Shown piece after piece: positions 27,209-59,736 of a stretch of DNA of 64,000 nucleotides. The notes under the pieces are model-generated. The model did no database searches. It was not told where the DNA came from and saw nothing but the letters and a program-made list of their open reading frames with translations. The translations under genes and the position numbers were made by a program. Location of the stretch: NCBI RefSeq assembly GCF_900753045.1, contig NZ_CAADXO010000012.1, forward strand, positions 36,588-100,587. Reading direction: 5' to 3'. Numbering within the stretch: the first letter of the stretch is position 1; the number at the start of each line of letters is the position of its first letter. The DNA is from an uncultured Phascolarctobacterium sp. (GTDB lineage Bacteria > Bacillota > Negativicutes > Acidaminococcales > Acidaminococcaceae).

Positions 27209-30200
27209 TTATTTGAAGTAGCTTACGCCGGACAGGAAAATCTTCTGATCCTTGTCGCCAGCAATGTTGCGGAACAGGCCCGGAGCAAAGCGCTCGCTGT
27301 GACCCATCTTGCCGAGGATACGTCCGTCGGGGCTAGTGATGCCTTCGATAGCATACAGGCTGCCGTTCGGGTTGAACGGAGTGTTCATGGTCGGTACGCC
27401 CTGAGCATTTACATACTGGGTAGCAACCTGGCCGTTAGCGAACAGCTCTTTAATGGTGCTTTCCGGAGCGTAGAAACGGCCTTCGCCGTGGGATACGGCA
27501 ACTGCATGCTCTTCGCCGGGCTCGCACAGGCTGAACCACGGAGATTTGTTGGAAACAACTCTGGTGGTAACAATCTGGGAAATATGACGGCCGATGTTGT
27601 TGAAGGTCAGTGTCGGTGCATCGCTGGTCATATCGCGGATATCGCCGTACGGAACGAGGCCAAGCTTAATCAATGCCTGGAAGCCATTGCAGATACCCAG
27701 CATCAGGCCATCGCGGTTTTCGAGCAGGTCGCTGATTGCTTCCTTGATGCGCGGGTTGCGGAACATGGTAGCGATGAATTTGCCGCTGCCGTCAGGCTCG
27801 TCACCGGCGCTGAAGCCACCGGGGATCATAACGATCTGGGAGTTGTTGATATATTTAACCATTGCTTCTACGGATTCTTCGATAGCAGCAGCGGTAAGGT
27901 TGCGCACGATGAAGGTGTTAGCTTCGGCACCTGCAGCTTCAAAAGCGCGGGCACTGTCGTATTCGCAGTTGTTGCCGGGGAATACGGGGATGAATACGCG
28001 CGGTTTGGCGATATTCACCGGAGCGGTGAGCGTCAGCTCGCTCTTGTACAGCGGCATAGCGATGTCAGCAGGCTCCTCTGCCTTCGGAGTGCCGTCCGGG
28101 AAGATGCCCAGCAGCGGCTCGCGGTATGCGGCAAAGGCTTTCGCAGCGTCAATCTTGGTGTCGTTGATGGTGATGCCTGCTTCGGCAGTAGTGTGGCCGA
28201 GCAGCATGTAATCCAGACCTTCGAACAGCTCTTCCGGTTCTACGCCGGCTGCCAGCTCGATAACCATGCCACCGGGCTGCAGAGTAAAGAGGCTGTCGGT
28301 ATCGTGGAACGGTTTGATGAATTCAAAGCCAAGCTCGTTGCCCAGGCTCATGGTGGTTACCAGTGCAGCTACGCCACCCTCTTTAACAGCGGCAGCAGCA
28401 GCGATTTTGCCTGCTTCTATAGCCTTGTGTACAGCGGTCAGGTTTTCCTTCAGCGCTGCAAAATCCAGTACTTCGGCACTGTTGCGCGGGCAGGACAGGA
28501 AGATTACCTTGTCGCCTGCTGCCTTGAAGTCGGCAGATACAGCCTTGTTGCCATCGATTACGCCTACAGCGAAGGAAACGAGTGTAGGCGGAACGGTTTT
28601 GTCCATGAAGGTACCGCTCATGCTGTCCTTGCCGCCGATTGCCGGCAGGTCCAGTGCATCAAGTGCGGTGAAGGCGCCCAGCAGTGCGCTGAACGGCTGG
28701 CCCCAGCTGTTGGCATCATGCAGTTTCGGGAAGTACTCCTGCAGAGTCAGGCGCAGCTTAGCGGGGTCTGCACCCAGAGCTACGGCACGAACTACGGATT
28801 CGGTTACAGCGTACATTGCGCCGTGGAACGGGCTCCAGCAGGCAACGTTCGGGTTGTAGCCGCAGGCCATTACGCTGGCTGCAGTGGTGTTGCCATGCAG
28901 CACAGGAATGCGACCTACCATGCCCTCGCTCGGGGTGAGCTGGGTTTTGCCGCCAAACGGCATCATTACGGTGCCACGGCCGATGGTGCTGTCAAAGCGC
29001 TCGGACAGGCCCTTTTCGCTGCAAACATTCAGACGGCCGAGGTTAGCCAGCCATGCAGCCTCCAGGTCAGCAGCGGAGGTTACTTCGGCAGGAACCTGCT
29101 CGAATACGTTGTCCTCTTTTTCTTCGCTTACTACGATATTGGTGTGCTGTGCAACGCCGTTGGTATCGAGGAAAGCGCGGGACAGGTCAACAATTTTATC
29201 GCCACGCCAGAACATAACCAGGCGCGGTTCTTCGGTAACGTCGGCAACAACAGTTGCTTCCAGGTTTTCTTCGTCAGCATATTTGATGAAGGCGTCGCGG
29301 TCAGCGGCAGCGATAACAACAGCCATACGCTCCTGAGATTCGGAGATAGCCAGCTCGGTGCCGTCCAGGCCTTCGTATTTCTTGGGAACCTTGTCGAGAT
29401 CAATAACAAGACCGTCGGTCAGCTCGCCGATAGCAACGGATACACCGCCTGCACCGAAGTCGTTGCAGCGTTTGATCATTGCGGTTACGGCAGGGTTGCG
29501 GAACAGACGTTGGATTTTGCGTTCGGTCGGAGGATTACCCTTCTGTACCTCTGCGCCGCAGCTCATGAGGGAGTCAACAGTGTGCTCCTTGGAGGAACCG
29601 GTTGCACCGCCGCAGCCGTCACGGCCGGTTTTACCGCCCAGCAGTACTACGATATCGCCGGCAGAGGGACGCTCACGGCGAACTGCGCTACGGGGAGCAG
29701 CGCCGATTACGCCGCCGATTTCCATACGCTTCGCAACAAATTTATCATGATAGTATTCCTGTACATGGCCGGTTGCCAGACCGATCTGGTTGCCGTAGGA
29801 GCTGTAGCCTGCAGCTGCGCCGATGGTAATCTTGCGCTGAGGCAGCTTGCCGGGCAGGGTTTCGCTGATCGGGGTGCGCGGGTCGGCACTGCCGGTTACA
29901 CGCATAGCCTGATATACATAGGAACGGCCGGACAGCGGATCGCGGATTGCACCGCCGAGGCAGGTTGCAGCGCCGCCGAACGGTTCGATTTCGGTCGGAT
30001 GGTTATGGGTTTCGTTTTTGAACATTACCAGCCACTCTTCGGTTTTGCCGTCGATTTCGATAGGCACAACGATAGAGCAGGCATTGATTTCTTCGGACTG
30101 GTCAAGGTCAGCCAGCTTGCCTTCCTTGCGCAGCTTCTTCATGCCGATTACGGCAATGTCCATCAGGGTTACCGGACGCTCGGTGTCTTCACCGTAAACC

Positions 30201-30985
30201 TCGTCACGGGCAGCCATGTATTTGTCATAAGCCTCTTGTACAGGCTGGGTAAAGGTGCCAGGAACGATATCTACATCCTCAATCTGAGTCATGAAGGTGG
30301 TATGACGGCAGTGGTCGGACCAGTAGGTATCCAGCACACGGATTTCAGTAATAGTCGGCTCGCGGTGCTCCTCGTTAAAGTATTTCTGGCACCACAGCAG
30401 GTCGTCCAGGCTCATAGCCAGGCCCATGGATTGGCGCAGTGCTTCTGCTTCTTCCTTGGACATGGTCAGGAAACCGGTAACGGATTTAACCTTTTCCGGC
30501 TCCTCGCAGGTGCTGATGAGGGTTTCAGGCTTAGCCTGCTCAGCCTCACGCGCTTCAATCGGGTTGATGCAGTAAGCCTTGATTTTTTCAACTTCTTCCG
30601 CAGTCAGCTCGCCTTCCAGCACATATACCTTAGCGGCAGCAACCATCGGGCGCTCCTTTTGGGTAATCAGCTGGATACATTGTTCGGCAAAATCCTCACG
30701 CTGGTCATATTGACCGGGCAGCAGCTCTACGGCAAAGGCAGCCTCGCCTGCAGCCAGCGGCAGCTCTTCTTCTACAACATTGTCGACAGGTGGCTCGGAC
30801 AGTACCAGCTGTTTAGCCATAGCGAATTCCTCATCGCTCAGGCCCATCACGTCATAGCGGTTAACGATACGCATACCGGTAAGATTGCTCATACCAAGGT
30901 TATTGCGCAGGTCTGCCAGCAAGCCATGTGCTTCGACAGCAAAGGCATCCTTCTTTTCTACAAAAAGTCTTCTAATGTTACTCAT
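27209..30985 (-). CDS. purL: Phosphoribosylformylglycinamidine synthase, single-chain large form (about 1260 aa)
   Basis: N-terminal PurS-like region, central AIRS/FGAM synthetase domains and a C-terminal glutaminase with the triad region GICNGFQAL. Start at MSNIRR, 8 nt after GGAGG. Confidence 0.95.
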   Translation of the reverse strand: MSNIRRLFVEKKDAFAVEAHGLLADLRNNLGMSNLTGMRIVNRYDVMGLSDEEFAMAKQLVLSEPPVDNVVEEELPLAAGEAAFAVELLPGQYDQREDFAEQCIQLITQKERPMVAAAKVYVLEGELTAEEVEKIKAYCINPIEAREAEQAKPETLISTCEEPEKVKSVTGFLTMSKEEAEALRQSMGLAMSLDDLLWCQKYFNEEHREPTITEIRVLDTYWSDHCRHTTFMTQIEDVDIVPGTFTQPVQEAYDKYMAARDEVYGEDTERPVTLMDIAVIGMKKLRKEGKLADLDQSEEINACSIVVPIEIDGKTEEWLVMFKNETHNHPTEIEPFGGAATCLGGAIRDPLSGRSYVYQAMRVTGSADPRTPISETLPGKLPQRKITIGAAAGYSSYGNQIGLATGHVQEYYHDKFVAKRMEIGGVIGAAPRSAVRRERPSAGDIVVLLGGKTGRDGCGGATGSSKEHTVDSLMSCGAEVQKGNPPTERKIQRLFRNPAVTAMIKRCNDFGAGGVSVAIGELTDGLVIDLDKVPKKYEGLDGTELAISESQERMAVVIAAADRDAFIKYADEENLEATVVADVTEEPRLVMFWRGDKIVDLSRAFLDTNGVAQHTNIVVSEEKEDNVFEQVPAEVTSAADLEAAWLANLGRLNVCSEKGLSERFDSTIGRGTVMMPFGGKTQLTPSEGMVGRIPVLHGNTTAASVMACGYNPNVACWSPFHGAMYAVTESVVRAVALGADPAKLRLTLQEYFPKLHDANSWGQPFSALLGAFTALDALDLPAIGGKDSMSGTFMDKTVPPTLVSFAVGVIDGNKAVSADFKAAGDKVIFLSCPRNSAEVLDFAALKENLTAVHKAIEAGKIAAAAAVKEGGVAALVTTMSLGNELGFEFIKPFHDTDSLFTLQPGGMVIELAAGVEPEELFEGLDYMLLGHTTAEAGITINDTKIDAAKAFAAYREPLLGIFPDGTPKAEEPADIAMPLYKSELTLTAPVNIAKPRVFIPVFPGNNCEYDSARAFEAAGAEANTFIVRNLTAAAIEESVEAMVKYINNSQIVMIPGGFSAGDEPDGSGKFIATMFRNPRIKEAISDLLENRDGLMLGICNGFQALIKLGLVPYGDIRDMTSDAPTLTFNNIGRHISQIVTTRVVSNKSPWFSLCEPGEEHAVAVSHGEGRFYAPESTIKELFANGQVATQYVNAQGVPTMNTPFNPNGSLYAIEGITSPDGRILGKMGHSERFAPGLFRNIAGDKDQKIFLSGVSYFK

Positions 30986-31175
30986 ATACACGGCCTCCAA
31001 TGTAATTTTCTCGAGGTGAATACTTGCTATTTATGTATCTATTTTAACCAATACACTTATATGGTTATGTCAAATAGATTATAAAGAAATATATTGTCTA
31101 GGTAATAAACTTGTATTATTTTGACAATGTATTCCCTTGTAAAACCTGTTGTTTGTGACTTTATAGTGTCACATG

Positions 31176-32330
31176 CTAAGCTTCTATCACAGCAACGTGT
31201 TTTTCCGAACATTCCTGCAAGATGTGCCCATAGATAGCATAGGTGACCGCTATGCTAGTGTGTCCTAAGCGTTCTGTTATAAGAGCTATAGGTACATGCT
31301 TGTAAATCATGTTGGATGCATTTGTGTGTCTCAATCCGTGGAACGTGAAAGGTCTAGTGATACCTGCGCCTTTCCTAGTGAAATCCCACGCATGGATAAG
31401 CAACCGCTCCACATAGAAGCTATCTCTTTTCCTATTATAGAAGATATAAGGTGACTTGTCAAAGCTAAGTGGCTTTAAAGACATAAGAAGCTGTGTTGTC
31501 TTCTCAGATATTTTGATGGTGCGATACCCAGCTTGTGTCTTAGGGTATGTAACTATTGTCTTGTTATTCTTATCCTTAGCTAAGGTTCTTTTTACAGATA
31601 TTGTATTAGCAGCATCATCGAGACAATCCCACGTAAGAGCTAACAGCTCCCCTTCTCTCATGCCTGTTTCATAAGCAAGACAATACAGAGCATAGAACTG
31701 ATACTTCAGCATAGGTTTCTCCTTGTGCTCCCATAGGGGCAGGAGGAACGCTTTGATTCGCTCGTGCTCCTCTTGCGATAAGACAACCACTTCATGTTTA
31801 GGTTTGTCACTCTTTGGTGTCTTCTGCATCGAAGTTACAGGTGACTTTCCAATGAGGTCTTGTTCTACACACCATTTGAAAAAGAGCCTTAAGCGACCTA
31901 TATAATTAAGATAGGTATTAGTTGAATAGTTCTTTTGATGCCACTCTAAGAGCATGGTATCTATAGTATGAGTGGTGACCTTAGATAACGCTAAGCCATT
32001 AGCTGTTTTGTCTAGGAGCTTAAGTACACGCCTTGTGGTGATTATTACAGACCCTGACATCCGCTGAGCTTCTAGGTGCTTAAGGTACACCTCACCCTGA
32101 TACTTTATTGTGTCTTCTTCTGCTTTTACTTGCAGACCTTTATCCTCTTTGTCTCTCTGAAGCTTCTTCAGCTTCTCCACAGCTTCCTTTTTTGTGTCTG
32201 CTGTGGCTGATAGCCAACGCCTTTTGCCATCCACAGGGTCTAATTCTACCCTAACACGTACTTTACCGCTAGGGAGGACTATTATAGACCCCTCTCCTTT
32301 AGGTCTTCTACGAGTGGTTTTAGATGGCAT
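31176..32330 (-). CDS. int: Tyrosine-type site-specific recombinase (phage integrase)
   Basis: C-terminal catalytic region FHGLRHTNAS ... LGHTSIAVTYAIYGHI carrying the R..H-x-x-R...Y signature. Start at MPSKTTRRR, 7 nt after AGGAGG. Confidence 0.9.
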   Translation of the reverse strand: MPSKTTRRRPKGEGSIIVLPSGKVRVRVELDPVDGKRRWLSATADTKKEAVEKLKKLQRDKEDKGLQVKAEEDTIKYQGEVYLKHLEAQRMSGSVIITTRRVLKLLDKTANGLALSKVTTHTIDTMLLEWHQKNYSTNTYLNYIGRLRLFFKWCVEQDLIGKSPVTSMQKTPKSDKPKHEVVVLSQEEHERIKAFLLPLWEHKEKPMLKYQFYALYCLAYETGMREGELLALTWDCLDDAANTISVKRTLAKDKNNKTIVTYPKTQAGYRTIKISEKTTQLLMSLKPLSFDKSPYIFYNRKRDSFYVERLLIHAWDFTRKGAGITRPFTFHGLRHTNASNMIYKHVPIALITERLGHTSIAVTYAIYGHILQECSEKHVAVIEA

Positions 32331-32389
32331 TATAAAACCTCCTGACTTCAAAAATTGCCAAAAATTGTGAAAGGGTATATATAATATAG

Positions 32390-36591: not shown

Positions 36592-36616
36592 AATGGGTCA
36601 CCTTTAATGAAGAAAG
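36592..36616 (+). promoter_or_regulatory. Candidate phage-RNAP promoter, copy 1, upstream of the RNAP gene
   Basis: AATGGGTCACCTTTAATGAAGAAAG. The core GGGTCACCTTTAG resembles the -12 to -1 region of SP6/T7-type promoters (SP6: GGTGACACTATAG). Confidence 0.45.
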
Positions 36617-36643: not shown

Positions 36644-39229
36644 ATGACACAAGTAGATGTGGACATGATGGAAGAAGAATTGAAGTTGGAATCTGCCTAC
36701 AGATTAGCAGGGTATGAAACGATGCAACGCAACCTGCAACAAGCCAAAGAAAATAGCATGGTAGATACAGCTACCCCTATTGGACAAGCATTTTTCACCC
36801 ACAAGCTGTTGGCTGTAAAAGACACAATCGAACAATGGCTTATCAAGAACATGAAACCCAAAGCAGGTGTAAAGCCTAACTATACTTTTCTTTTGGAAGA
36901 CCTGAAAAGAGAGTTCCGCACAGAGGATGATGAGGTTGATATTGACACCATATCTTCTATCTGTGCTAGTGTTACCTTATCCGCTATCTTAAATGCCTTA
37001 ACTCTCAAAGGTGAAAAAGGCAACTATCTGAATGATGTAGCTGCTAAAGCTGGGCGTGGCTTGTACTATGAGTATCAGATGAAAGCCTTTGAAAATTGGC
37101 TGAAGACACAAGACACCAATAAAGGAGCATTGGCAGGTATAGAAAAAAGAGTTGGTCTCCATTATCGTTATGTCTATCTGAAACAGGCTATGTCCAAATG
37201 TGGCTACGCTGCCCCAAATTGGGATAGTCAGAACACAGCTATCCGTACATTAGGTACTGCTTTTGTTGTCTTAGCACAGGAGGAGACAAACTACTTCACC
37301 TTAGAAGCTACTATGGATACCCCTTCTGAGCTTATCCCCACAGAGCAATTTACAGAAGCGTGGCAACGCAATGAAGACAATATGCTGGAACATGCAAGAC
37401 AAAGCTGCCCTATGATTATCCCTCCTAAAGATTGGACAAGCTATGAGGATGGTGGTTATTATGGTGACCTTGCATCCTTCACCTCTCTCCTGCGTTTAAA
37501 GTACCTTGATACTATTTTTGGTAAACAGTACAAACGTAGACTTATGCAACTTGACATTCCACAGGTTTATAAGGCTGTCAATAGTATTCAGGCAACACCA
37601 TGGGTAATCAATAAGCAGGTATTAGAGGTGCTGAAGCAATGTAGACAAAACAACTATATCCCCTGCTCTAGTGAGAATGGAAATGTGCTGTCTTTAGAAA
37701 ATGATGATGCTCCCAAACAACCAGCATCCACAGCCACGGATGAGGAAATAAAGGCATATAAGAAAAAGGCTGTGGAATACTACAAGGGATTGAAACGTCG
37801 TATGTCTTTGCAGAATCGTGCAAATACTATTATAAATACAGCAGAACGCTTCAGCTCCTATGCACACATCTACTTTCCGTGGAACATGGACTTCAGAGGT
37901 CGCATTTACCCTATCCCCTCTTTCAGTCCTCAAAGTGATGATTTAAACAAAGGCTTATTACTTTTTGCAGACACACCACCTTGCCAACATGAAGAAGACA
38001 TCAAGTGGCTTGCCATTACCGGAGCGAACCTTGCAGGTGTAGATAAAGTAAGCTACGATGATAGAATTGCATGGGTATATCAGCATGAAGAAGATATATT
38101 AGCATCTGCTGCTGACCCTATGGGACATCAATGGTGGCTGCAACAGGATGAGCCTGTACAGATGCTGGCGTTCTGCTTTGAGTGGGCAAAGGCTAAGCAA
38201 TGGATAGTTGCACATGGCTCTATTGTTGGTTGGGTAACAGGTCTCCCCTATGCTCAGGATGGAACGTGCTCCGGTCTGCAACATTTCAGTGCTATTCTCA
38301 GAGACCCTATTGGTGGTAAAGCTGTAAACCTTGTACCCCAAGACAAACCAAATGACATCTATGCACAAGTAGCGGAAAAAGTCAATGAGTTTTTGAAAAA
38401 AGATGCAGTAAATGGCACTCTTGATGAATGGGATGAAAAGAAGCTGAGAATGAAGTTTGGCACAAAAACCCTTGCGCAAATATGGTTAAACTTTGGGGTA
38501 AACCGCAAGGTTACCAAAAGACCAACCATGACACTCGCCTATGGTGCTAAAAAGGCAGGATATACTGCTCAAATTATGGAAGACACCATAAAGAAGGCAA
38601 TGAGAGAGCAGGGAGAAGCGTGTGTCTTCACTCAATCTAATAATTTTCAGGCTGCACAGTATTTGGCTGGTCAGATATGGGATGCTGTGGGTCAAACAGT
38701 TGTAAAGGCTGTTGAGGGTATGGATTGGTTACATAAATGTGCTAAACTTGTCACAAAAAATTCAAATGTTGTATCTTGGGTTACCCCTCTAGGCTTACTG
38801 TTACAACAGAGCTATGTCAAGTTTGATATTGAAATTGTTAAGCTCAGATGTGCTGGAAAACGCTATCGTATCTATACTCCACATCAGAATGGACAGATAG
38901 ACAAAAGCAGACAAACAAATGGCATTGCCCCTAACTTCATTCATAGCATGGATGCATGTCACTTGCAACTTACAGTCTGCAAATGCAAAGATGCAGGAAT
39001 TAATCACTTTACGATGATTCACGATAGCTATGGTTGTCCTATGTCTCAGGTGGATATTATGTATAAGTTAGTAAGAGAAGCCTTTATAGAGCTTTATACA
39101 GAGCATGATGTTCTTGCTGAATTTAAAGAATCTCTACAATATTTAGTAACTAAAGAACTCCCTGCTCCACCTAAAAAGGGAGAATTAGACCTGAACATTA
39201 TAAGAGACAGTAAGTATATATTTTGCTAA
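36644..39229 (+). CDS. Single-subunit DNA-directed RNA polymerase (T7 gene 1 family)
   Basis: Motif A region DGTCSGLQHFSAILRD against T7 DGSCSGIQHFSAMLRD. Motif C MIHDSYG. LAFCFEWAKAK against T7 LAFCFEY. 861 aa against 883 aa in T7. Confidence 0.95.
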   Translation: MTQVDVDMMEEELKLESAYRLAGYETMQRNLQQAKENSMVDTATPIGQAFFTHKLLAVKDTIEQWLIKNMKPKAGVKPNYTFLLEDLKREFRTEDDEVDIDTISSICASVTLSAILNALTLKGEKGNYLNDVAAKAGRGLYYEYQMKAFENWLKTQDTNKGALAGIEKRVGLHYRYVYLKQAMSKCGYAAPNWDSQNTAIRTLGTAFVVLAQEETNYFTLEATMDTPSELIPTEQFTEAWQRNEDNMLEHARQSCPMIIPPKDWTSYEDGGYYGDLASFTSLLRLKYLDTIFGKQYKRRLMQLDIPQVYKAVNSIQATPWVINKQVLEVLKQCRQNNYIPCSSENGNVLSLENDDAPKQPASTATDEEIKAYKKKAVEYYKGLKRRMSLQNRANTIINTAERFSSYAHIYFPWNMDFRGRIYPIPSFSPQSDDLNKGLLLFADTPPCQHEEDIKWLAITGANLAGVDKVSYDDRIAWVYQHEEDILASAADPMGHQWWLQQDEPVQMLAFCFEWAKAKQWIVAHGSIVGWVTGLPYAQDGTCSGLQHFSAILRDPIGGKAVNLVPQDKPNDIYAQVAEKVNEFLKKDAVNGTLDEWDEKKLRMKFGTKTLAQIWLNFGVNRKVTKRPTMTLAYGAKKAGYTAQIMEDTIKKAMREQGEACVFTQSNNFQAAQYLAGQIWDAVGQTVVKAVEGMDWLHKCAKLVTKNSNVVSWVTPLGLLLQQSYVKFDIEIVKLRCAGKRYRIYTPHQNGQIDKSRQTNGIAPNFIHSMDACHLQLTVCKCKDAGINHFTMIHDSYGCPMSQVDIMYKLVREAFIELYTEHDVLAEFKESLQYLVTKELPAPPKKGELDLNIIRDSKYIFC

Positions 39230-39252
39230 TGGGTCACCTTTAGTGAAGAAAG
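39227..39252 (+). promoter_or_regulatory. Candidate phage-RNAP promoter, copy 2
   Basis: TAATGGGTCACCTTTAGTGAAGAAAG, immediately after the RNAP stop. Confidence 0.45.
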
Positions 39253-39412: not shown

Positions 39413-39439
39413 AATGGGTCACCTTTAGTGAAGAAAAGA
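39413..39439 (+). promoter_or_regulatory. Candidate phage-RNAP promoter, copy 3
   Basis: TAATGGGTCACCTTTAGTGAAGAAAAG, 186 bp downstream of copy 2. The segment between them is AT-rich and full of internal repeats. Confidence 0.45.
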
Positions 39440-39530: not shown

Positions 39531-39815
39531 ATGGTGAAACATGACCTCTGTCATGTTGAGTGCTTAGAACCTACAAAGCACTACGATGAGCATTATGCGT
39601 CCATGATAGGCTTAGAGCCTATTGAGCTGATGCAGCTTGTGTTGACCTATGATGAATTTATTGGCTTTCTCAAAGGCAACATCATCAAATACACCCTGCG
39701 AGCCGGAAAGAAGCAAGGTGAAGCTGCGGAAAAGGATGTAGCTAAGGCTAAACGCTATACTGAATGGCTCGTAAAACTTGGCTATAAGATGCCAATCAAT
39801 CCAAAGGAGGACTAA
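39531..39815 (+). CDS. Hypothetical phage protein, possibly DUF3310-like
   Basis: ...FIGFLKGNIIKYTLRAGKKQGEAAEKDVAKAKRYTEWL...; start MVKHD after AAGGAGG. Confidence 0.4.
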   Translation: MVKHDLCHVECLEPTKHYDEHYASMIGLEPIELMQLVLTYDEFIGFLKGNIIKYTLRAGKKQGEAAEKDVAKAKRYTEWLVKLGYKMPINPKED

Positions 39816-39819
39816 AAAT

Positions 39820-40317
39820 TTGGTAAACATTAAATTCAAAAAACTTGACCCTGAAGCCACTCTCCCCCAAGCAATGACAGGTGGAGCTGCTGGTCTTGAC
39901 TTGGTTTGTCTTAACCGCATGGCGGTGACACCGAACCGCTGGTCTTCAAAGGCAGCTATCATTCACACAGGCTTGGCTATGGAGCTGCCTGAAGGCTATT
40001 ATGCTGAGGTTGTCTTGCGCTCCTCTACAGGCAGAGACACAAAACTCAGACTTGCTAATCAGGTCGGTATTATTGATTCTGATTATCGTGGTGAAATCAT
40101 GTTGTATGTGGAGAATTTAGGTGACCATCTTGAAATTATTGATGCTGGTCAAAGAATTGCGCAACTGTTGATTCACAAGATTGAAGAAGTGGTGATTGAA
40201 GAAGTCACTGATGAGCTGTCTAAGACTGAAAGAGGTCTTGAAAGTGGCAGTACAGGCAAAGGTACTAAACCTGCTGTGAAGACAAGAAGAACCAAGGAGG
40301 GAGCTAAGGATGCCTAA
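39820..40317 (+). CDS. dut: dUTP diphosphatase
   Basis: dUTPase motifs AGLDL, RSSTG and GIIDSDYRGE. TTG start 9 nt after AGGAGG; the ORF-table start (39778) overlaps the previous gene. Confidence 0.85.
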   Translation: MVNIKFKKLDPEATLPQAMTGGAAGLDLVCLNRMAVTPNRWSSKAAIIHTGLAMELPEGYYAEVVLRSSTGRDTKLRLANQVGIIDSDYRGEIMLYVENLGDHLEIIDAGQRIAQLLIHKIEEVVIEEVTDELSKTERGLESGSTGKGTKPAVKTRRTKEGAKDA

Positions 40318-40741: not shown

Positions 40742-41341
40742 ATGGCAAAGAATGATTTTGCACAAATTACAACCCCTGCTGGTGAAGCGGTGTACCCTAA
40801 GCTCCGCAGCACCGAAGTATTTGATGGCGAGGATACCGGAAAGTATGTCTGCGGTATCAAATTGTCTAAAGCAGACACTGATAAGCTGATTCAACGTATT
40901 GAAAACGAATGGGAGATGGCTAAGAAGTCTCCCGACTTTGACGGCAAGCGTTATGGTCGCAACTCTGCACCTGCCCTTGGTTTCCATGAAGACAAAGATG
41001 GTGATATTGTCTTTAAGGCTAAGACCAATGCTGTTATCAAGACCAAAGCTGGTGAGGTTATCGAAAAGACTATGGCTGTCTTTGATAAGAAGGGTAAACC
41101 TATGGATGAAGAGATGGAAGTAGGCAATGGTTCTACCATCCGTCTGTGTATGCTTCTGCGCCCCTTCTATGCTTCTGCTACTGTCTATGGCATCCAACTG
41201 CTCCTGAAGGCTGTTCAGGTGCTGAACTATGTTGCTCCTGCTGCTGGTGCGGTATCTGCTGATGATTGTGGCTTTGATGTCGAAGAAGAATTTGACGAAG
41301 ACAATCCCCCGTTTGCAACCTCTGAGGGTGCAGACTTTTAA
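40742..41341 (+). CDS. ssDNA-binding protein, T7 gp2.5 family
   Basis: Architecture parallels T7 gp2.5: N-terminal AxPxxYPKL and a central ...GSTIRLCMLLRPF... region. The acidic C-terminal tail ends in Phe (...DEDNPPFATSEGADF), as in T7 gp2.5 (...DEDGDF). Confidence 0.65.
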   Translation: MAKNDFAQITTPAGEAVYPKLRSTEVFDGEDTGKYVCGIKLSKADTDKLIQRIENEWEMAKKSPDFDGKRYGRNSAPALGFHEDKDGDIVFKAKTNAVIKTKAGEVIEKTMAVFDKKGKPMDEEMEVGNGSTIRLCMLLRPFYASATVYGIQLLLKAVQVLNYVAPAAGAVSADDCGFDVEEEFDEDNPPFATSEGADF

Positions 41342-41347
41342 GAGCCT

Positions 41348-41815
41348 ATGGCTATTAAATTTAATCGTAGAGGTGGCTTTGCTACCCTCAACAAACCCTA
41401 TCGTAGCGGTTTAGAAGACCGCCTTGCACAGCAACTTGAAAACGCAGGTGTACCTAAGGTGTACGAAAAATACTCTATCGCCTATGAGATTCCTGCTACA
41501 AAGCATCATTATACCCCTGATTTCATTCTGCCTAATGGTATCATCATTGAAGCCAAGGGTATCTTTGAAGCTGCTGACCGCAAGAAACATCTGCTTATCA
41601 GACAACAATATCCGAATTTAGACATACGCTTTGTATTCTCCAACGCTAAGACAAGAATTGGCACAGGTGCAAAGACAACTGTGGCTGAATGGTGTGAGAA
41701 GCATGGTTTCCAATACGCCAGCCGTGAGATTCCCTCTCGCTGGTTCAAAGAGACCATGAAGGACACCAATGGTCTTGTCCTGCGTGGAAAAGGTGAGCGT
41801 ATTGTCACTCTTTAA
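41348..41815 (+). CDS. Endonuclease I (Holliday-junction resolvase), T7 gene 3 family
   Basis: YRSGLEDRLAQQLE and YTPDFILPNGIIIEAKGIFEAADRKKHLLIRQQYPNLDIRFVFS align closely with T7 endo I (FRSGLEDKVSKQLE; YTPDFLLPNGIFVETKGLWESDDRKKHLLIREQHPELDIRIVFS). Confidence 0.9.
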   Translation: MAIKFNRRGGFATLNKPYRSGLEDRLAQQLENAGVPKVYEKYSIAYEIPATKHHYTPDFILPNGIIIEAKGIFEAADRKKHLLIRQQYPNLDIRFVFSNAKTRIGTGAKTTVAEWCEKHGFQYASREIPSRWFKETMKDTNGLVLRGKGERIVTL

Positions 41816-42143
41816 ATTCAAAGAGCGCACTAAGACCACACAGATATGTGTTGTCTTACGAAACCTAAAGGGTAAGCGCAAAGGTGAGCTGTTTAGGGCA
41901 GCTTACAGACAAGGTGAAGTTGACACAGGCTTTCATTTTATTGTCTTCAACAATGGTCTTTTTGAGACCGACAGAGAAATAAAGGCAGTTGCCGGATATA
42001 ATCTGCCTGAATGTGAGACTTCTGTGTATGTCTTAGCTGATACGTTAGGACGAAAGAAAATATCCGATGCTCAGCAGTATGTACTGAATGAGCTGAAGGC
42101 ACACTATAATGTGCCTATAAAATTTATTACTGACGAGGTGTAA
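41802..42143 (+). CDS. T7-lysozyme (gene 3.5, amidase_2/PGRP fold) homologue lacking two of the three Zn ligands
   Basis: FKFKERTKTTQICVV against T7 VQFKQRESTDAIFVH, and GFHFIVFNNGLFETDREIKAVAGYNL against GYHFIIKRDGTVEAGRDEMAVGSHAKGYN. His17 is replaced by Val and Cys130 by Ile, with Tyr46 changed to Phe; His122 and Lys128 are retained. TTG start after GGTGAG. Confidence 0.65.
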   Translation: MSLFKFKERTKTTQICVVLRNLKGKRKGELFRAAYRQGEVDTGFHFIVFNNGLFETDREIKAVAGYNLPECETSVYVLADTLGRKKISDAQQYVLNELKAHYNVPIKFITDEV

Positions 42144-42146
42144 CTT

Positions 42147-43763
42147 ATGGAGACACATCAACCCTGCCCTGCTTGTGGCAGCCATGATGCCCTAACCATA
42201 TATGAAGATGGACACAGTTATTGTTTTTCATGCAACACCTACTTTCGCAGCGACAAGGAGGAGAAAAAATTGTCAAGTGGTTTAAAGAAACAAGGTCTGA
42301 TAGACCTACAGGACATGGTGGTCTCCCCCTTGCCTAAGCGAAAACTGACAAAACAAACCTGCGCCAAATACGGCTACTTTACCTCTAAGGTGCATGGTCA
42401 GCCTGTGCAGGTTGCTTGTTACTATGATGATGATAACAAACTCTTGGGGCAGAAAATCAGATATGCTGATAAGACCTTTGAAGCTAGAGGTTCTTTTAGT
42501 GAGCGATTCTTTGGGCAACATCTGTTCCAAGGTGGCGGTAAGAAGCTGGTAGTGACCGAGGGTGAGATTGATTGTCTTACTGTCTCGCAGGTACAGGGTA
42601 ACAAATATCCTGTTGTGAGTATTCCTACAGGTGCTGCTAGTGCTGCTAAGGTCTTCAGAGCTAACTTTAATTGGCTAGAGAGCTTTGAGGAAGTCATTGT
42701 TATGTTTGATATGGATGATGCTGGACGTAAAGCAGTTAAGGCTGTTAGTGGTATCCTGTCACCTAACAAACTTAAGATAGCATGGTTGCCTTGCAAAGAC
42801 CCTAATGAATGTTTGCAGGAAGGCAAGGCTGATGCTGTTGTTAAAGCTGTTTGGGAAGCTAAGACATACACCCCTGCTGACATCATCAAAGGTGATGAGC
42901 TGTGGGAGGTATTGTCTAAGCATGAAGAATCCCTGAACTACCCCCTGCCTTGGGACATCCCACTGCAAAACATGACTGATGGGTTACGAAAAGGTGAGCT
43001 GGTAGTTATCACAGCAGGCACAGGTATAGGCAAAACTACGTTCGTTAGACAACTAGCCTATCATCTTGGTACAGAGTGCTATTGTAAAGTAGGTATGCTG
43101 ATGTTGGAAGAAAATGTTAAGCACACCGCCAATGGTCTTGTGTGTCTTAAGCTTGGCAAACCTGCCCATAGACCTATCATTGACAGTGAGTACAAAAAAG
43201 CATTTGAAGACATCATGGATAATTTTGTCTTCTACAATCACTTCGGCTCGCTGGAATGTGAAGACCTCTTGCAGACCATCCGTTACATGGTGACAGGTGA
43301 GCAGGTGGATTTTGTTGTCTTAGACCACATCTCCATTGCTATCAGCGGTCTTGACATTGAGAATGAGCGTAAGGCTACTGATGTACTTATGACGAAACTT
43401 CGTTCGCTTGTAGAAGAAACAGGTGTAGGAATGTTGGTTGTCTCTCACCTGCGCAGAACTGATGGCACTCCTGCTGAAGAAGGTGGAGCACTCTCCCTCT
43501 CACATCTGCGTGGTTCGCAAGCAATCTCACAGCTCTCTGATGCTGTGTGGGGTCTTGAAAGAAACCAGCAGGATGAGGGAATGAAGAAGAATCTTGTACG
43601 TGTGAGGGTGCTGAAGAACAGATATAGTGGTGATACAGGTATCGCCGGATACCTTGCATATGACAAGGAACATAATATCTTAAAAGCTGTAAAGGACTTA
43701 TCAGAGTATGAAGCACCTGCATGTCCTTTTGATACTGATGAAACAGAGAAAGGAGATTTTTAG
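42147..43763 (+). CDS. Bifunctional DNA primase/helicase, T7 gp4 family
   Basis: N-terminal Zn ribbon CPACGSHDALTIYEDGHSYCFSC. TOPRIM region LVVTEGEIDCLTV...YPVVSIPTGAASAAK...VMFDMDDAGRKA matches T7 gp4. Walker A GTGIGKTTF. The acidic C-terminus ends ...ETEKGDF. Confidence 0.9.
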   Translation: METHQPCPACGSHDALTIYEDGHSYCFSCNTYFRSDKEEKKLSSGLKKQGLIDLQDMVVSPLPKRKLTKQTCAKYGYFTSKVHGQPVQVACYYDDDNKLLGQKIRYADKTFEARGSFSERFFGQHLFQGGGKKLVVTEGEIDCLTVSQVQGNKYPVVSIPTGAASAAKVFRANFNWLESFEEVIVMFDMDDAGRKAVKAVSGILSPNKLKIAWLPCKDPNECLQEGKADAVVKAVWEAKTYTPADIIKGDELWEVLSKHEESLNYPLPWDIPLQNMTDGLRKGELVVITAGTGIGKTTFVRQLAYHLGTECYCKVGMLMLEENVKHTANGLVCLKLGKPAHRPIIDSEYKKAFEDIMDNFVFYNHFGSLECEDLLQTIRYMVTGEQVDFVVLDHISIAISGLDIENERKATDVLMTKLRSLVEETGVGMLVVSHLRRTDGTPAEEGGALSLSHLRGSQAISQLSDAVWGLERNQQDEGMKKNLVRVRVLKNRYSGDTGIAGYLAYDKEHNILKAVKDLSEYEAPACPFDTDETEKGDF

Positions 43764-44000: not shown

Positions 44001-45347
44001 ATGCTCTACTTTGATATTGAAACCGATGGTCTGCTGGACAATGTTACTAAAGGGCATTGTCTAGTAATCATCGACGAACAGAACAACATCTCAGCTTACA
44101 GACCTGATGATTTTAAAAAAGGAGCTATGCGATTAATCGCTGCTCTGAGGGATGGAGAAAGCATCTGCGGGCATAACATCATCAATTATGACTGTGCTGT
44201 CTTAGCTAAGCTCTATCCCGAGTTTCGCATAAAGCGAGAATGGAGACCACAAGTTTTAGATACCCTTGTGCTGTCACGTCTTATCTGTGGCAACATAGAA
44301 GATACTGACCACGCTAGGGTACGTAATGGTACACTCCCTGCTAAATTGATTGGTAGACAATCACTAAAGGCATGGGGTTATCGCCTTGGGGAACTTAAAG
44401 GTACGTATGGTGAGCAAGAGGATGCATGGGATTCTTTCAGTGAGGAAATGCTCTCCTATTGTGTGCAGGATGTCACTGTTACCAAGAAGCTCTATACATA
44501 CCTCATGAAGATTGGTGCACCTGCTAAGGCTATAGAGCTGGAGCATCAAGCACAATGGCTGATGTCTAAGCAGGAGCGGAATGGTTTTGTCTTTGACTTA
44601 GAAAAGGCAGAAAAGCTGAGGGAAACCTTAGAATTGCGCTATGCTGTGTTGTCTTCTCAGCTTGTGGCTATTGTGCCACAGATACCTGATAAGGTCTTTA
44701 TACCAAAAAGAGATAACAAACGCTTAGGGTATAAAGCAGGTGTACCTATTCAAAGATATAAGGACTTCAATCCTAGTAGCAGACAGCAGGTAGCATGGGT
44801 GCTGGAGCATCAATTCAACTACTTGCCGGAAAACGAAGACTGCTATGAGGATGAACGCCTGAAGATTGATGGTGATACCTTTAAGTTTATTAAGGGTGAT
44901 GAAAATGCCCCACAAGAACTAAGAGACTTAGCTGCTGTCTTTGAGGAGTATCTTATGGTGGCTAAGCGGTTAGGTCAGCTTGCCACAGGTAACCAAGCAT
45001 GGCTGAAGCATGTTAAGGCTGATGGTAGAATCCATGGTAGCGTAAATCCTTGTGGTACAGTAACAGGACGTGCTACCCATGCGAACCCTAATGTTGCCCA
45101 AGTCCCCCACGTTGGTAGTCCTTATGGTCAAGAGTGCAGGGAATTGTTTAGAGCACCTGAGGGTTGGTTTGAGGTAGGTGTAGATGCCTGTGGCTTGGAG
45201 CTTAGGTGTCTTGCACACTATCTTTATCCCTATGATAAAGGTGCTTATGCCCATGTTATCTTGAATGGTGATATTCATACATTGAATCAACAGGCTGCTG
45301 GGTTACCTACTAGAAACGCAGCTAAGACATTTATATATGCGTTCCTT
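44001..45347 (+). CDS. DNA polymerase (T7 gp5 family), exon 1: 3'-5' exonuclease and N-terminal polymerase part
   Basis: MLYFDIETDGLL (ExoI), HNIINYDCAVL (ExoII), and ...GRIHGSVNPCGTVTGRATH...LELRCLAHY...TFIYAFL against T7 TFIYGFL. The reading frame stops 5 codons after the T7-equivalent position, where the intron begins. Confidence 0.85.
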
Positions 45348-46002
45348 AAAATGCACTATTGAGGAACTAAAACCCATTGAAAACGGTGAAACTCTCACTG
45401 AGACAATACCGTGCTAAGATTTTGGAGGAAATGTGAATAGATGAACAAAACTAATCATTATAGAGGTGCAGAAAATCCACAGTATAAATATGGTGCTGGT
45501 GTCTTTGTTAGAAAAAGGACAGAGATAAAAGAACGTATTGGTAAATGTGAACGCTGTGGTAAAGATTTGACTAATGCAGGACATTATGAGTGGTGTGTGC
45601 ATCATAAAAACCATAACCATTATGATAACACTGAGGGTAATTATGAGTTATTATGCAAGAAGTGCCATCAATTAGAGCATCAATGTGTAAAGAATATCCC
45701 TAAATCATATGAAAAAGTATGTGAACTCTGTGGAGATACCTTTACTGCAAAAGCACATAATCAAAAATATTGCCCTGGCTGTCTCAAAGTCCAACGAAAT
45801 ATGCGCCGATATAGAAGTTTTGAGCAAATAAAAGCATATATCCTTCAAAATAAAGTGTAACGACTATTCCGTAAGGAAGTACAGCACAAGCTAATGGTGC
45901 TGGAAGTGGTGGGCATTGATGATATAGTCTATTCTCATAGGTGACTATGAGCAGTTTCTTAGAAAACGCTTGGGGACTTGCGAACCCTAGGGAATAATTA
46001 AG
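45348..46002 (+). mobile_element. Group I self-splicing intron in the DNA polymerase gene
   Basis: 5' exon ends ...TTCCTT. An internal guide candidate GAGGA 13 nt downstream can form P1 with a U-G pair at the splice site. The intron ends in G (..TAAG). Joining 45347 to 46003 restores ...TFIYAFL|YGAGDKAIG..., matching T7 ...TFIYGFLYGAGDEKIG. Confidence 0.7.
45441..45860 (+). CDS. Intron-encoded HNH homing endonuclease
   Basis: Zn-finger-like CERCGK and an HNH core HHKNHNHYDNTEGNYELLCKKCHQLEH. Own RBS GGAGGA. Confidence 0.8.
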   Translation: MNKTNHYRGAENPQYKYGAGVFVRKRTEIKERIGKCERCGKDLTNAGHYEWCVHHKNHNHYDNTEGNYELLCKKCHQLEHQCVKNIPKSYEKVCELCGDTFTAKAHNQKYCPGCLKVQRNMRRYRSFEQIKAYILQNKV

Positions 46003-46512
46003 TATGGTGCTGGTGATAAAGCTATTGGTAAACAGCTTGGTGGGGATGAAAAGGTTGGCAAGCAGGTAAAGAACAAATTCCTGAAGGCTACCCCTGCTAT
46101 CAAGATGCTGCGTGAAGCTGTCAAGAATACACTCGTGGTTGAGTACCACGGAAAAATTAAAGAATGGAAACGAAAATATTTAAGAGGGTTGGATGGCAGA
46201 CATCTCCATGTGAGAAGTCTACATTCAGCTCTCAATTTGCTTTTACAGTCCTGTGGTGCATTGATATGTAAAAAATGGATATGCCTATGGGAAGAAAACA
46301 TGATTAAAGCTGGCTATGACCATGGAAAAGATTTTCAATTCATGGCATGGGTGCATGATGAGGGGCAAGTAGCTTGCAGAACCGAAGCTATTGCTGAAGA
46401 AGCTGTGAGAATTGCCCAAGAATCTATGAGACAAACACAAGAATATTATGGAATCAGATGCCAATTAGATACCGAGGGAAAGATTGGTAAAAATTGGTAT
46501 GATTGCCACTAG
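46003..46512 (+). CDS. DNA polymerase (T7 gp5 family), exon 2
   Basis: YGAGDKAIGKQLGG...LRGLDGRHLHVRSLHSALNLLLQSCGALICKKW...AWVHDEGQVACRTE...QLDTEGKIGKNWYDCH aligns with the T7 gp5 C-terminus (...MGPNWAICH). Confidence 0.8.
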   Translation, partial: YGAGDKAIGKQLGGDEKVGKQVKNKFLKATPAIKMLREAVKNTLVVEYHGKIKEWKRKYLRGLDGRHLHVRSLHSALNLLLQSCGALICKKWICLWEENMIKAGYDHGKDFQFMAWVHDEGQVACRTEAIAEEAVRIAQESMRQTQEYYGIRCQLDTEGKIGKNWYDCH

Positions 46513-46518: not shown

Positions 46519-47154
46519 ATTACAATAAAGATATTAGTAGCATGTGAAGAAAGTCAACGTGTAACCATTGAGTTACGTAAGTTAGGGCATGAAGCCTATA
46601 GTTGCGACATCATCCCTTGTAGTGGGGGGCATCCTGAATGGCACTTGCAGCAGGATGTTATCCCATTGTTGAAAGAGAAGTGGGATATGATTATTGCTTT
46701 TCCACCTTGTACCTATTTCACAACAGCAGGTGCATGTCGCATGTTTCATAAAGTAGAGGGTGTTAGCATCCTGGACGAAGAACGCTATGCTAATGCTATG
46801 AAGATGAAAGCATTGTTTTTAGCTATCTATGAAGCAGATTGTCCTTATATTTGTATTGAGAATCCTACTCCTATGAAAGTGGTAGGACTTCCTCCTCATT
46901 CACAAGTTATTCAACCCTATCAGTTTGGGCATCCGTGGAGCAAAAGAACTTTATTATGGTTAAAAGGTCTTCCACCTTTGAAGGCTACATGTGTGGTTGA
47001 ACCCACAATGGGAAGTTGGGTTAATGGTTCAGCAGATGCCTACAAGAAAGCTAATGGAAAGCACAATGGCAAAAGTTCTGCTATTGAGCGTAGTAAGACC
47101 TTTGAGGGTATTGCTAGAGCTATGGCAGAGCAATGGGCAGGAAAGAATGTTTAA
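46519..47154 (+). CDS. C5-cytosine-methyltransferase-fold protein with a degenerate SAM motif and no target-recognition domain
   Basis: The frame is open from the DNA pol stop with no ATG/GTG/TTG before the TTG at 46645. Homology to C5-MTases, as I recall their motifs, starts at 46528: KILVACEESQ at motif I (FxGxGG expected), FPPCTYFTTAG at motif IV (PCQ), ICIENP at motif VI (ENV), and HPWSKRT at motif VIII (QxRxR). A conservative CDS would be 46645..47154. Confidence 0.5.
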   Translation: MTIKILVACEESQRVTIELRKLGHEAYSCDIIPCSGGHPEWHLQQDVIPLLKEKWDMIIAFPPCTYFTTAGACRMFHKVEGVSILDEERYANAMKMKALFLAIYEADCPYICIENPTPMKVVGLPPHSQVIQPYQFGHPWSKRTLLWLKGLPPLKATCVVEPTMGSWVNGSADAYKKANGKHNGKSSAIERSKTFEGIARAMAEQWAGKNV

Positions 47155-47533
47155 CATCCCCACTCTACTCTTAGTCATATGCACCGCCTATACCCCTGCC
47201 TTGGACGAATGTGGGAAGACCGATGGCATTACAGCAAGTGGACACCCTGCAATCATGGGGCAAACAGTAGCCTGTGATGGACTACCTCTAGGAACTGAGG
47301 TGGTTATTGATGGTCACAGCTACATTGTTCAGGACAGGTTCGGCGGTGATTATGGTAAGACAAAAATTGATATATTTATGAACACTAAAGCAGAAGCCTT
47401 TAGGTTCGGAAGACAAACAAAAATTGTGGAGGTAAAGCCTTATGTCGAAACAAAAGCAACCTTTTGTGCCAAAGATTGGTCAGAAGGTCTATATCAAACG
47501 TCAGAACTCCTTAGGAGAACCTATCTATTTTGA
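47147..47533 (+). CDS. 3D-domain (MltA/RlpA-like) cell-wall-binding protein with an N-terminal signal anchor
   Basis: LPLGTEVVIDGHSYIVQDRFGGDYGKTKIDIF matches the 3D domain pattern (GT.V.I.G...D.GG...IDIF). Its C-terminal 92 nt overlap the next ORF in another frame. Confidence 0.5.
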   Translation: MFNIPTLLLVICTAYTPALDECGKTDGITASGHPAIMGQTVACDGLPLGTEVVIDGHSYIVQDRFGGDYGKTKIDIFMNTKAEAFRFGRQTKIVEVKPYVETKATFCAKDWSEGLYQTSELLRRTYLF

Positions 47534-57642: not shown

Positions 57643-59736
57643 TTGAGTAAAGAAGTACAGGCAGCGGTAGGTACTCAACGGCAGTTTGCAAAGCAACCGG
57701 AGATGCCCTATGCGCTGTCCTTAAATAAATTCAATGCATCTACAGGTATCTCACAACGTACAGATTTAGATGCACAGCGCTTAGCATCATCTTTAGGTCT
57801 CCTTGGTAAGAATATCATGGAGGAGCGTATTGCTGATGAGAAGCGTACCCAAGACCAAGCAGTCTTGGTCAATGCAGACAAACTCCTTGCAGGTAAGACA
57901 CAAGAAGACCTGAAGAAGTTTGACCGCATGGCAGCTTTACAGAACTCTAGTGCTGATTTTGACTTGACAGATAACCGCTATGCTATGGCTGTTCTTGAAA
58001 AAGGCATTGGTAAAATGGCAAGCCAATATGCTAAAGAGCAATGGGCAAATGACCCTGCTTCTGAAAAGCCTAAGAGTGTATCTGAAGCTGTTAGTCTTTT
58101 CAATAAATATTTGCAGGAGAACAGAGCTAACTTCAGTGATGATGGTATCTCTAATAAGGTAGCATTTGACCAAGGCTATTATGAGGGTGCTGTTCAAGAC
58201 ACAATAAAAATAGCTAATGAAGCTGACAAGAGAATCAATGATGATAAGCGTCAGAAGATGGTCATGTTAGGTTCTAGTGAGTTTCAAGACCTTGTGTATA
58301 GTGGAGCTAAGGGTGAAGACTTCCTCACTCGTGGCAATGAAGCGTTGCGTAAAGTTCAGTTAGGTGCTAGAGATAGAGATGGTTTCATTAAAGCTGTTGC
58401 TCCTCTTGCTCAGATGATTGCTGACCAAGATTTTGATACGGCAAGATTGGATGCCTTAGGTGACTATCAGTACGAAGATGGTTTGTCTTTAAAGCAGATG
58501 GTTAACCTCTACCCCTCCTATACCAAGATTGCAGATAACTTCAATCTGAGAGTTACCGATGATATTGTGTCTAAATGCACACGTCCTGATGGCACTGTTG
58601 ACCTCTCAAAAGCTGAAGCATTGTTGTCTCAGTTACCTGCGGAAACTACAAATGCTGATGGTATTCCTGAAGCTAACCTGCCTATCTCGCAGGGAGACAA
58701 CCCCGACTTAGCAGACCTGTCACCCACTATGAAAAGTGTGTTACCTATGGTTGGTGGTGCTATCTATCAGTTAGGTTTTAAGGATGCACAGATTACCAGC
58801 GGTTATCGTACAGCAGAGCACAATGCGTCTGTGGGTGGTGTACCAAACTCAGAACATACCCAAGGCAATGCTGTGGATATTTATTTAGGTGACAATGTGG
58901 ACGAAGCACAGGCAAATAAAGCATTGGCTTATTTTAAGCAATACTTTGGTGAGGTCTTGTTCCATGATGCTGGCACAGGCAGACATTTGCATCTTGCTGA
59001 TTACCATGGTGGTATGAAAGCTGCTAATCCTAAAGAGCAGTCTGCTGCTGCCTATAATCCCCAACGTGTCAATAAGATACGCCAAGCTATCTATGCCAAA
59101 CAGGCACAGGCTCAGCGTGTTAAGGCTCAACGTGATGCTGAGGAAAGAGACAGAATCAATATGGCTCTTTTGCAGACCAATGACCCCAACGAGCAATTAC
59201 AGATTATTAATAGCTCTAACTTGCCAGCAGCAACTAAAGCTACTATGGCTCGTACTATTACACGCCAAGCACGTCAGTCCGCTAAAGGCTATGGTAATGA
59301 TGCAGAAGCTAAACATTTTTGGTCATATGAAAATAGCTATCAATATATTAAAGACACACAGACATATGCCGAATGGTACAAAGCTTATCAAGACCCTGAT
59401 GTTGATGGAGATTCTGATGAGTATAAGGCTTTGCAAAAGAGAGCTAATAGAGCCACAGCAAGACTTAATGACTTGCTAGAGTTCAAAAAGAAACGTGGGT
59501 ATATTCCTAGTGAGCAGGCTAAGACAACACAGTCTAATGAACCTCCTGATGATACCCCTGTGTTCTCTCAAAAAGACAAGGATATTGCTGAGATGAAGAT
59601 ATGGGCAAACAGTAACCCTAAAAATTCTGCTGGCGTACCTTTGGATGAAGACCAAATACGTGATGCTATTGATAAGTTTGCTATACGTAATGGTCTTGAT
59701 GTGAATGATATTGAGGAGGAGGTCTTTGGTTCATAA
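57643..59736 (+). CDS. Internal virion protein C (gp15-like) carrying a peptidase-M15 (LAS metallopeptidase) domain
   Basis: Position and size match gp15, with a moderate match at the MSK N-terminus. The region at about 58780-59015 encodes ITSGYRTAEHNASVGGVPNSEHTQGNAVDIY...HLHLADYHGG. That is the SxHxxGxAxD...H zinc-site signature of M15/VanY-like peptidoglycan peptidases. Confidence 0.72.
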   Translation: MSKEVQAAVGTQRQFAKQPEMPYALSLNKFNASTGISQRTDLDAQRLASSLGLLGKNIMEERIADEKRTQDQAVLVNADKLLAGKTQEDLKKFDRMAALQNSSADFDLTDNRYAMAVLEKGIGKMASQYAKEQWANDPASEKPKSVSEAVSLFNKYLQENRANFSDDGISNKVAFDQGYYEGAVQDTIKIANEADKRINDDKRQKMVMLGSSEFQDLVYSGAKGEDFLTRGNEALRKVQLGARDRDGFIKAVAPLAQMIADQDFDTARLDALGDYQYEDGLSLKQMVNLYPSYTKIADNFNLRVTDDIVSKCTRPDGTVDLSKAEALLSQLPAETTNADGIPEANLPISQGDNPDLADLSPTMKSVLPMVGGAIYQLGFKDAQITSGYRTAEHNASVGGVPNSEHTQGNAVDIYLGDNVDEAQANKALAYFKQYFGEVLFHDAGTGRHLHLADYHGGMKAANPKEQSAAAYNPQRVNKIRQAIYAKQAQAQRVKAQRDAEERDRINMALLQTNDPNEQLQIINSSNLPAATKATMARTITRQARQSAKGYGNDAEAKHFWSYENSYQYIKDTQTYAEWYKAYQDPDVDGDSDEYKALQKRANRATARLNDLLEFKKKRGYIPSEQAKTTQSNEPPDDTPVFSQKDKDIAEMKIWANSNPKNSAGVPLDEDQIRDAIDKFAIRNGLDVNDIEEEVFGS

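Follow-up and report, generated by a model that had tools for sequence, protein, structure and literature searches.

A short T7 lysozyme homologue without the zinc ligands in a T7-like prophage of Phascolarctobacterium: a candidate dedicated regulator of the phage RNA polymerase

T7 lysozyme (gp3.5) is a textbook bifunctional phage protein, being both an enzyme and a regulator of transcription. To our knowledge, these two roles have until now been separated only by laboratory mutations. One amidase-dead laboratory variant of T7 lysozyme is LysY (K128Y). Another is AFK136, in which codons 130-135 are deleted, abolishing lysis with normal binding to the RNA polymerase (RNAP) (PMC2680503). As described in PMC5445346, the region interacting with the RNAP comprises residues 2-52, and inhibition takes place without need for Zn. 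In other T7-like lysozymes, RNAP inhibition is tuned by N-terminal residues, and an R3S change weakens T7 lysozyme (PMC10138996). A literature search found no paper on natural truncated, ligand-less gp3.5 homologues, nor on loss of the catalytic site in public entries. Here, a short relative of gp3.5 encoded by a prophage of an uncultured Phascolarctobacterium sp. is compared with the T7 protein.

The prophage and the position of the short gp3.5 gene

In the window, i.e. the whole stretch of 64,000 nucleotides that was analysed (contig NZ_CAADXO010000012.1), a T7-like prophage adjoins about 31 kb of chromosomal DNA of the bacterium. The nucleotide homology of related MAG contigs (L006 and L010) with the window stops at exactly 31048, and the prophage (31049-64000) is inserted about 48 bp upstream of purL, with a tyrosine integrase at its left end (Table 1). 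Integrase-bearing relatives occur as viral contigs of ~41-45 kb. Literature searches turned up no temperate T7-like phages of Negativicutes, and nothing specific on T7-like phages of this group in general. Contig L010 (CAVCLW010000028.1) is labelled 'Escherichia coli isolate ... cleanbin'; its PurL is 99% identical to that of Phascolarctobacterium and it is collinear with the host part of the window. In the public record, this MAG contig has probably been binned wrongly or given the wrong label.

Table 1. Features of the window discussed in the text. T7 residues are given in mature numbering.
Feature	Position	Strand	Remarks
PurL	27209..31000	-	99% identical to PurL on uncultured Phascolarctobacterium MAG contigs
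Tyrosine integrase	31176..32351	-	Left prophage end
T7-type single-subunit RNA polymerase	36644..39229	+	E 6.8e-130 to 1ARO_P; presumed target of short gp3.5
22-nt element AATGGGTCACCTTTAGTGAAGA	39413..39434	+	Nearest upstream copy to short gp3.5 gene
SSB	40742..41341		
Endonuclease I (T7 gp3 homologue)	41348..41815	+	PF05367, E 1.5e-57
Shine-Dalgarno sequence AAGGTGAG	41790..41797	+	TTG start of short gp3.5 gene 4 nt further on
Short gp3.5-like gene	41802..42143	+	113 aa; predicted pseudo-amidase of Amidase_2/PGRP fold
Val18 codon of short gp3.5	41853-41855		Counterpart of T7 His17
Phe44 codon of short gp3.5	41931-41933		Counterpart of T7 Tyr46
His45 codon of short gp3.5	41934-41936		Counterpart of T7 His47, invariant in family
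His101 codon of short gp3.5	42102-42104		Within helix, not His122
Lys107 codon of short gp3.5	42120-42122		Counterpart of T7 Arg120
Ile109 codon of short gp3.5	42126-42128		At T7 His122 position
Stop codon of short gp3.5 gene	42141-42143		
Primase/helicase (T7 gp4 homologue)	42147..43763	+	ATG at 42147

The prophage genes are arranged in the T7 order. RNAP, DUF3310, dUTPase, SSB, endonuclease I, short gp3.5 and primase/helicase are followed by DNA polymerase, exonuclease, portal, scaffold, capsid, tail tube and internal virion proteins. The short gene is found in the slot between endonuclease I and primase/helicase of a T7-like genome with a single-subunit RNAP, as is T7 gp3.5 (1LBA; 1ARO chain L). 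The DNA polymerase gene (44001-46512) is split: an HNH endonuclease ORF (45441-45860) separates the N-terminal part (44001-45362) from the C-terminal one (46105-46512). The related loci L002 and L086 encode a single intact DNA polymerase of 618 aa. The window also encodes ThyX (47657-48277), a dUTPase (39778-40317) and a DNA methyltransferase (46645-47154), and the anaerobic ribonucleotide reductase NrdD is encoded by relatives (L118, 19557-21722; L168, 3985-5769). Together, these give the gut phages a gene set for nucleotide metabolism that suits an anaerobic host.

The ORF on which the original prediction was based is real and encodes 113 aa from a TTG start behind a strong Shine-Dalgarno sequence. 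Its start overlaps the 3' end of the endonuclease I gene by 14 nt, and the ATG of the primase lies 3 nt past its stop codon. The ORF is intact, at 111-113 aa, in 39 of 39 close viral contigs in IMG/VR, all of which share the TTG start and the tight primase junction and have an identical or closely similar Shine-Dalgarno sequence. An upstream ATG at 41769, which would give a 124-aa form, was dropped as a start, since the conserved Shine-Dalgarno sequence and the gene calls of most relatives favour TTG; the constancy of these signals and of the primase junction in all 39 contigs makes it unlikely. A missing C-terminus encoded downstream or reached via a frameshift was ruled out, because the early start of the primase leaves no room for it.

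In every clade relative examined (L128-L166, L001, L002, L084-L087), the short gene has a non-ATG start. The start codon is TTG, or GTG in L001, always with a strong Shine-Dalgarno sequence and the overlap with endonuclease I. The non-ATG start together with the overlap points to deliberately limited or coupled translation of short gp3.5.

Upstream, a 22-nt element with the pattern AATGGGTCACCTTTA[A/G]TGAAGA is present in three copies, at 36592-36613, at 39228-39249 and at the position in Table 1, with 0 matches expected by chance. In a manual comparison with the consensus sequences, it resembles SP6/T7-type promoters. The copy nearest to the short gene is a candidate phage promoter for the DUF3310-to-primase block, short gp3.5 included. 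The first copy is located 31 nt ahead of the RNAP gene; a promoter in this place would permit auto-amplification of the RNAP. At up to 3 mismatches, no copy was found in front of the late genes in the window. The early region also contains a 67-nt direct repeat (34627-34693 and 35104-35170, 96% identical), with a third partial copy at 35814-35841. This repeat holds a GC-rich hairpin (GGCATCCGCTCCGGCGGGTGTC) followed by CATAAAGCTTTTACAGCTTTAAA, and could be an early terminator/promoter or operator module.

Homology to T7 gp3.5 and loss of the catalytic residues

As a single sequence, the window protein matches T7 lysozyme in the PDB only weakly (E 0.022) and the PHROG amidase family with an E of 0.0035. 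It does not pass the Pfam gathering threshold for Amidase_2 (PF01510), no match to this family being found even at E<=1. Weak Amidase_2 matches are obtained from 27 of 96 family members, the best with an E of 9.7e-7. With 12 close homologues as a profile, the E-value against 1ARO_L is 4.5e-8, and with the 96-member family profile 2.5e-19. An hhalign comparison of the short family with 29 canonical gp3.5 proteins gives 99.6% (E 1.5e-24), placing window residues 2-108 on T7 residues 2-122 (Met-numbered).

The AF2 model based on the 96-sequence alignment has a pLDDT of 84.7; an alignment of only 12 sequences gave a pLDDT of 54 and an unusable model, and the 96 sequences were used instead. In a Foldseek search of the PDB with this model, 1ARO_L is the top match (TMq 0.74). 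The other top matches are LysC, 1LBA, Amidase_2 endolysins and PGRPs (top set TMq 0.66-0.75), with many PGRP matches at TMq 0.6-0.7. The three-layer alpha/beta amidase fold is thus present according to model and search. The short protein is a true homologue of T7 gp3.5; the relationship is marginal for the sequence taken singly, and profiles and fold show that it is not due to chance. Two sequence features of T7 gp3.5 are kept, its N-terminal arm (F-K-x-R-x-x-T) and the motif G-[YF]-H. The original prediction had described an alignment along the length of gp3.5. The homology stands, but it covers the T7 2-122 portion only: the short protein has 113 aa versus 151 aa in T7, and Lys128 and Cys130 are among the ~25 final residues that it lacks.

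Next, the catalytic residues were mapped through the profile-profile alignment (hhalign), with T7 in mature numbering. His17 falls on Val18 and Tyr46 on Phe44, in agreement with the two N-terminal substitutions proposed earlier. T7 Gly116-Ala121 corresponds to NVPIKF (103-108), the last strand. Extension of the alignment by one further residue, without a gap, puts Ile109 at the position of His122, and the chain finishes at Val113, about T7 residue 126. Lys128 and Cys130 have no counterpart, as their positions are past the stop codon. Since the chain ends just past the strand that would bear His122, all of His122, Cys130 and Lys128 are lost.

For this C-terminal part, the earlier residue assignments have to be revised. 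The supposedly retained His122 is His101, which lies inside the last helix of the AF2 model (helix 89-102), is variable in the close set and is replaced by Gln in most >94%-identical relatives. The supposedly retained Lys128 is Lys107, which aligns with mature Arg120. The isoleucine that was taken as the substitute of Cys130 is Ile109, at the position of His122. Instead of two of three Zn ligands, three of three are therefore gone, in addition to Lys128 and, in this copy, Tyr46. A mere shift of the ligands, which would have spoken against the prediction, was not what the alignment gave: the His122/Lys128/Cys130 segment is absent. With no alternative conserved His or Cys either, the central proposal of an amidase-dead gp3.5 homologue is supported by the sequence comparison, the loss of ligands being complete rather than partial. 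Since the Zn ligands and catalytic residues are lost, the short protein is predicted neither to bind a catalytic Zn nor to cut peptidoglycan.

A family of short gp3.5 proteins

An exhaustive HMM search of 1.84 billion cluster representatives retrieved at least 116 clusters (50% identity) at E<=1e-3, nearly all of 100-125 aa. A canonical amidase of 164 aa (P0123; VVHC...GYHF...GHRD...KACP) appeared only at the edge of significance. Column counts were made in an alignment of 118 sequences with T7. The His17 column contains Val in 50 and His in 13 sequences, the Tyr46 column Tyr in 60 and Phe in 40. His47 is His in 116 of the 118, whereas His is not among the eight commonest residues in the His122 column. 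Gaps occupy the Lys128 column in 88/118 and the Cys130 column in 104/118. The tails past the last strand have 0-13 aa, and contain a His in 6 of 96 members and a Cys in 4 of 96. Conserved across the family are R9, T12, G38, H45, G52, R58, A64 and Q91, all of which except A64 are invariant in canonical gp3.5. No conserved set of His, Cys, Asp or Glu able to rebuild a metal site was found in the family, the sole invariant His being His45.

The order endonuclease I, short gp3.5, primase is conserved at each of the nine related loci that were inspected (L001-L003, L084-L087, L168, L169). Among them are members with an identity of only about 30% and, on a contig of 287 kb, a prophage with a protein cluster assigned to Dialister sp. 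by NCBI. In L084, an HNH/NUMOD4 ORF is inserted between the short gp3.5 gene and the primase. The dN/dS of the window gene versus its relatives is 0.07-0.23. Family-wide truncation, strict synteny and purifying selection together exclude a pseudogene.

A scan of GTDB genomes found no short-family relatives. A megablast of the 4-kb region against cultured phages gave no match, and tblastn gave 537 weak matches, all <60% identical. The 40 of these that were listed all belong to T7-like phages of enterobacteria and Vibrio, the annotated ones being amidase, lysozyme or endolysin; no short-family member of a cultured phage was present among these 40 of 537. A further short form may exist in a cultured phage, Aeromonas phage PZL-Ah152, whose 'Lysozyme' of 104 aa is a BFVD match. 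Two BFVD entries named 'Endodeoxyribonuclease I', A0A8S5V3F5 (198 aa) and A0A8S5QNR3 (216 aa), match the gp3.5-like fold and may be endonuclease I-gp3.5 fusions or mis-called overlapping genes.

Among metagenomic entries, the 'Lysozyme' A0A8S5T7U2 of Caudovirales sp. ctIZM3 (113 aa; BFVD TM 0.84/0.84) is a member of the short family, as are DAG17728.1 and UWG83933.1. Public names of the family are automatic: 'lysozyme', 'N-acetylmuramoyl-L-alanine amidase' or 'hypothetical protein'. Given the predicted loss of activity, the 'lysozyme' and 'amidase' labels in public virome records would constitute a systematic annotation error.

Lysis, the phage RNA polymerase and the possible role of short gp3.5

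Because the window ends within the late region, a related viral contig of 44.9 kb (IMGVR_UViG_3300010283_000008) was used as a stand-in for the late genes. Its short gp3.5 is 95% and its gp16 96% identical to those of the window. Further on from the short gene (L137), this contig encodes a T7-type holin (PF10746) and, immediately after it, a Peptidase_M15_3 endolysin of 118 aa (PF08291, E 3.2e-21; phrog_894, E 9e-35). With such a separate cassette on a related genome, a lytic role for short gp3.5 is not needed; the separate M15 endolysin is a difference from T7.

By analogy with T7, short gp3.5 is rather probably a dedicated regulator that binds the phage RNAP. This reading is favoured because the two activities of T7 lysozyme are separable, the N-terminal portion is kept and selection on the gene persists despite a separate endolysin. 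In the hhalign alignment, the segment equivalent to T7 residues 2-52 is fully retained. Against this reading, position 3, the site of the weakening R3S change in T7 lysozyme, is Leu in the window protein. The phenotype proposed for the short protein is that of AFK136, in which C-terminal catalytic loss abolishes lysis and RNAP binding is kept. However, AFK136-type variants were obtained from a bifunctional enzyme by engineering or selection, whereas the short family is natural and widely conserved. The loss is also much larger in the short family, involving all Zn ligands and the whole C-terminal segment. Precedents exist in pseudo-enzymes that keep a moonlighting role, in laboratory amidase-dead lysozymes and in non-catalytic PGRPs.

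The polymerase side of the presumed interface appears to weaken this reading. In an alignment to 1ARO_P read by eye, the window RNAP shows poor conservation of the residues through which T7 RNAP is reported to touch lysozyme. R307 is kept, and E309/D310/V311/Y312 are M/Q/L/D. R720 is replaced by K, K721 by N, A724 by V, H726 by S and W736 by Q, with V728 kept. F849-Q852, including contact residues 850-852, fall in a 4-residue deletion. On the lysozyme side, the conservation of R9, T12, G38, H45, G52, R58 and Q91 may reflect the structure of the fold and not an RNAP interface.

The divergent RNAP contacts, and conserved residues that cannot be assigned to the interface, would also fit a protein in which the amidase fold was kept only as a stable scaffold and re-purposed for a partner other than the RNAP. 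Such a partner could be a host factor or one of the replication proteins encoded nearby (endonuclease I, primase/helicase, SSB). The close packing of the gene between endonuclease I and the primase, with probable coupling of their translation, is in line with this. This gene order, however, is the ancestral T7 order, and RNAP binding is the sole non-enzymatic function known for the gp3.5 family (PMC2680503, PMC5445346). Moreover, the region equivalent to T7 2-52 contains four of the nine family positions conserved at 80% or more (R9, T12, G38, H45), with G52 two residues beyond its end. A different partner is therefore considered less likely. The match of the fold to amidases and PGRPs (TMq 0.6-0.7 for the latter) brings in another role, that of a non-catalytic binder of peptidoglycan or muropeptides, as a sensor or an accessory of the M15 endolysin. 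Animal PGRPs of the same fold superfamily that have lost the Zn ligands still bind peptidoglycan (PMC8124813); non-catalytic PGRPs include PGRP-SA and PGRP-LC. These proteins are full length and extracellular, whereas the short protein is truncated and presumably cytoplasmic. Its gene lies among early/middle DNA-metabolism and replication genes, far from the holin-endolysin cassette, and no hydrophobic N-terminal leader or export signal was seen when the sequence was read by eye. The truncation also removes T7 residues 126-150, which make up one wall of the binding cleft at its C-terminal side. Binding of peptidoglycan seems improbable.

Some amidase activity with shifted or alternative ligands could be imagined from the 13 of 118 members with His at the His17 position, the about half that keep Tyr46 and the weak Amidase_2 matches of 27/96 members. 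Set against this are the absence of the His122/Lys128/Cys130 segment, the lack of any conserved metal-site set beyond His45 and a window protein under every Pfam Amidase_2 threshold, making residual catalysis highly improbable. Least probable of all is that the prophage is defective and its gene 3.5 in decay. The element is indeed an integrated prophage with an interrupted DNA polymerase gene, but decay is refuted by a dN/dS of 0.07-0.23, by the start codon and length kept in 39 viral contigs and by the same truncated architecture across 116 divergent clusters. Both residual catalysis and decay are essentially excluded.

Short gp3.5 is best explained as a natural pseudo-enzyme derived from T7 gp3.5. 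It keeps the N-terminal arm as well as the beta-alpha core of the fold (T7 1 to ~125), and lysis would be left to the separate late holin and Peptidase_M15 endolysin. If it does regulate the RNAP, it would be expressed with the class-II-like genes, its translation beginning at a weak TTG that is coupled to endonuclease I, and would accumulate as infection proceeds. By binding the single-subunit RNAP away from the active site, it might damp initiation, which would shift transcription and assist replication and packaging. More doubtful is the further idea that the short proteins arose as natural 'LysY-like' dampers in those T7-like phages that are temperate and infect diderm Firmicutes (Phascolarctobacterium, Dialister), the loss of the amidase being an adaptation to lysogeny and not simple redundancy with the M15 endolysin. 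Short proteins could then be made safely in the lysogen or early after induction, since they would have no wall-degrading activity, and might set a threshold against runaway, possibly auto-amplifying, expression of the phage RNAP.

A dedicated regulator of this kind would mean that the regulatory role alone is worth keeping, as shown by a large natural family without the catalytic apparatus. It would also set the minimal RNAP-regulating module at about 110 aa, and expression systems based on orthogonal phage RNAPs would gain inhibitors that are non-toxic and ready to use.

Elsewhere in the prophage, an internal virion protein (57643..59736) carries a Peptidase_M15_3 domain, with a role analogous to that of the T7 gp16 transglycosylase. 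An ORF of 180 aa (46991..47533) has weak matches to L-Ala-D-Glu peptidase PHROGs and a sub-threshold match to the Pfam 3D domain. The products of these two genes are possibly two further wall-active proteins.
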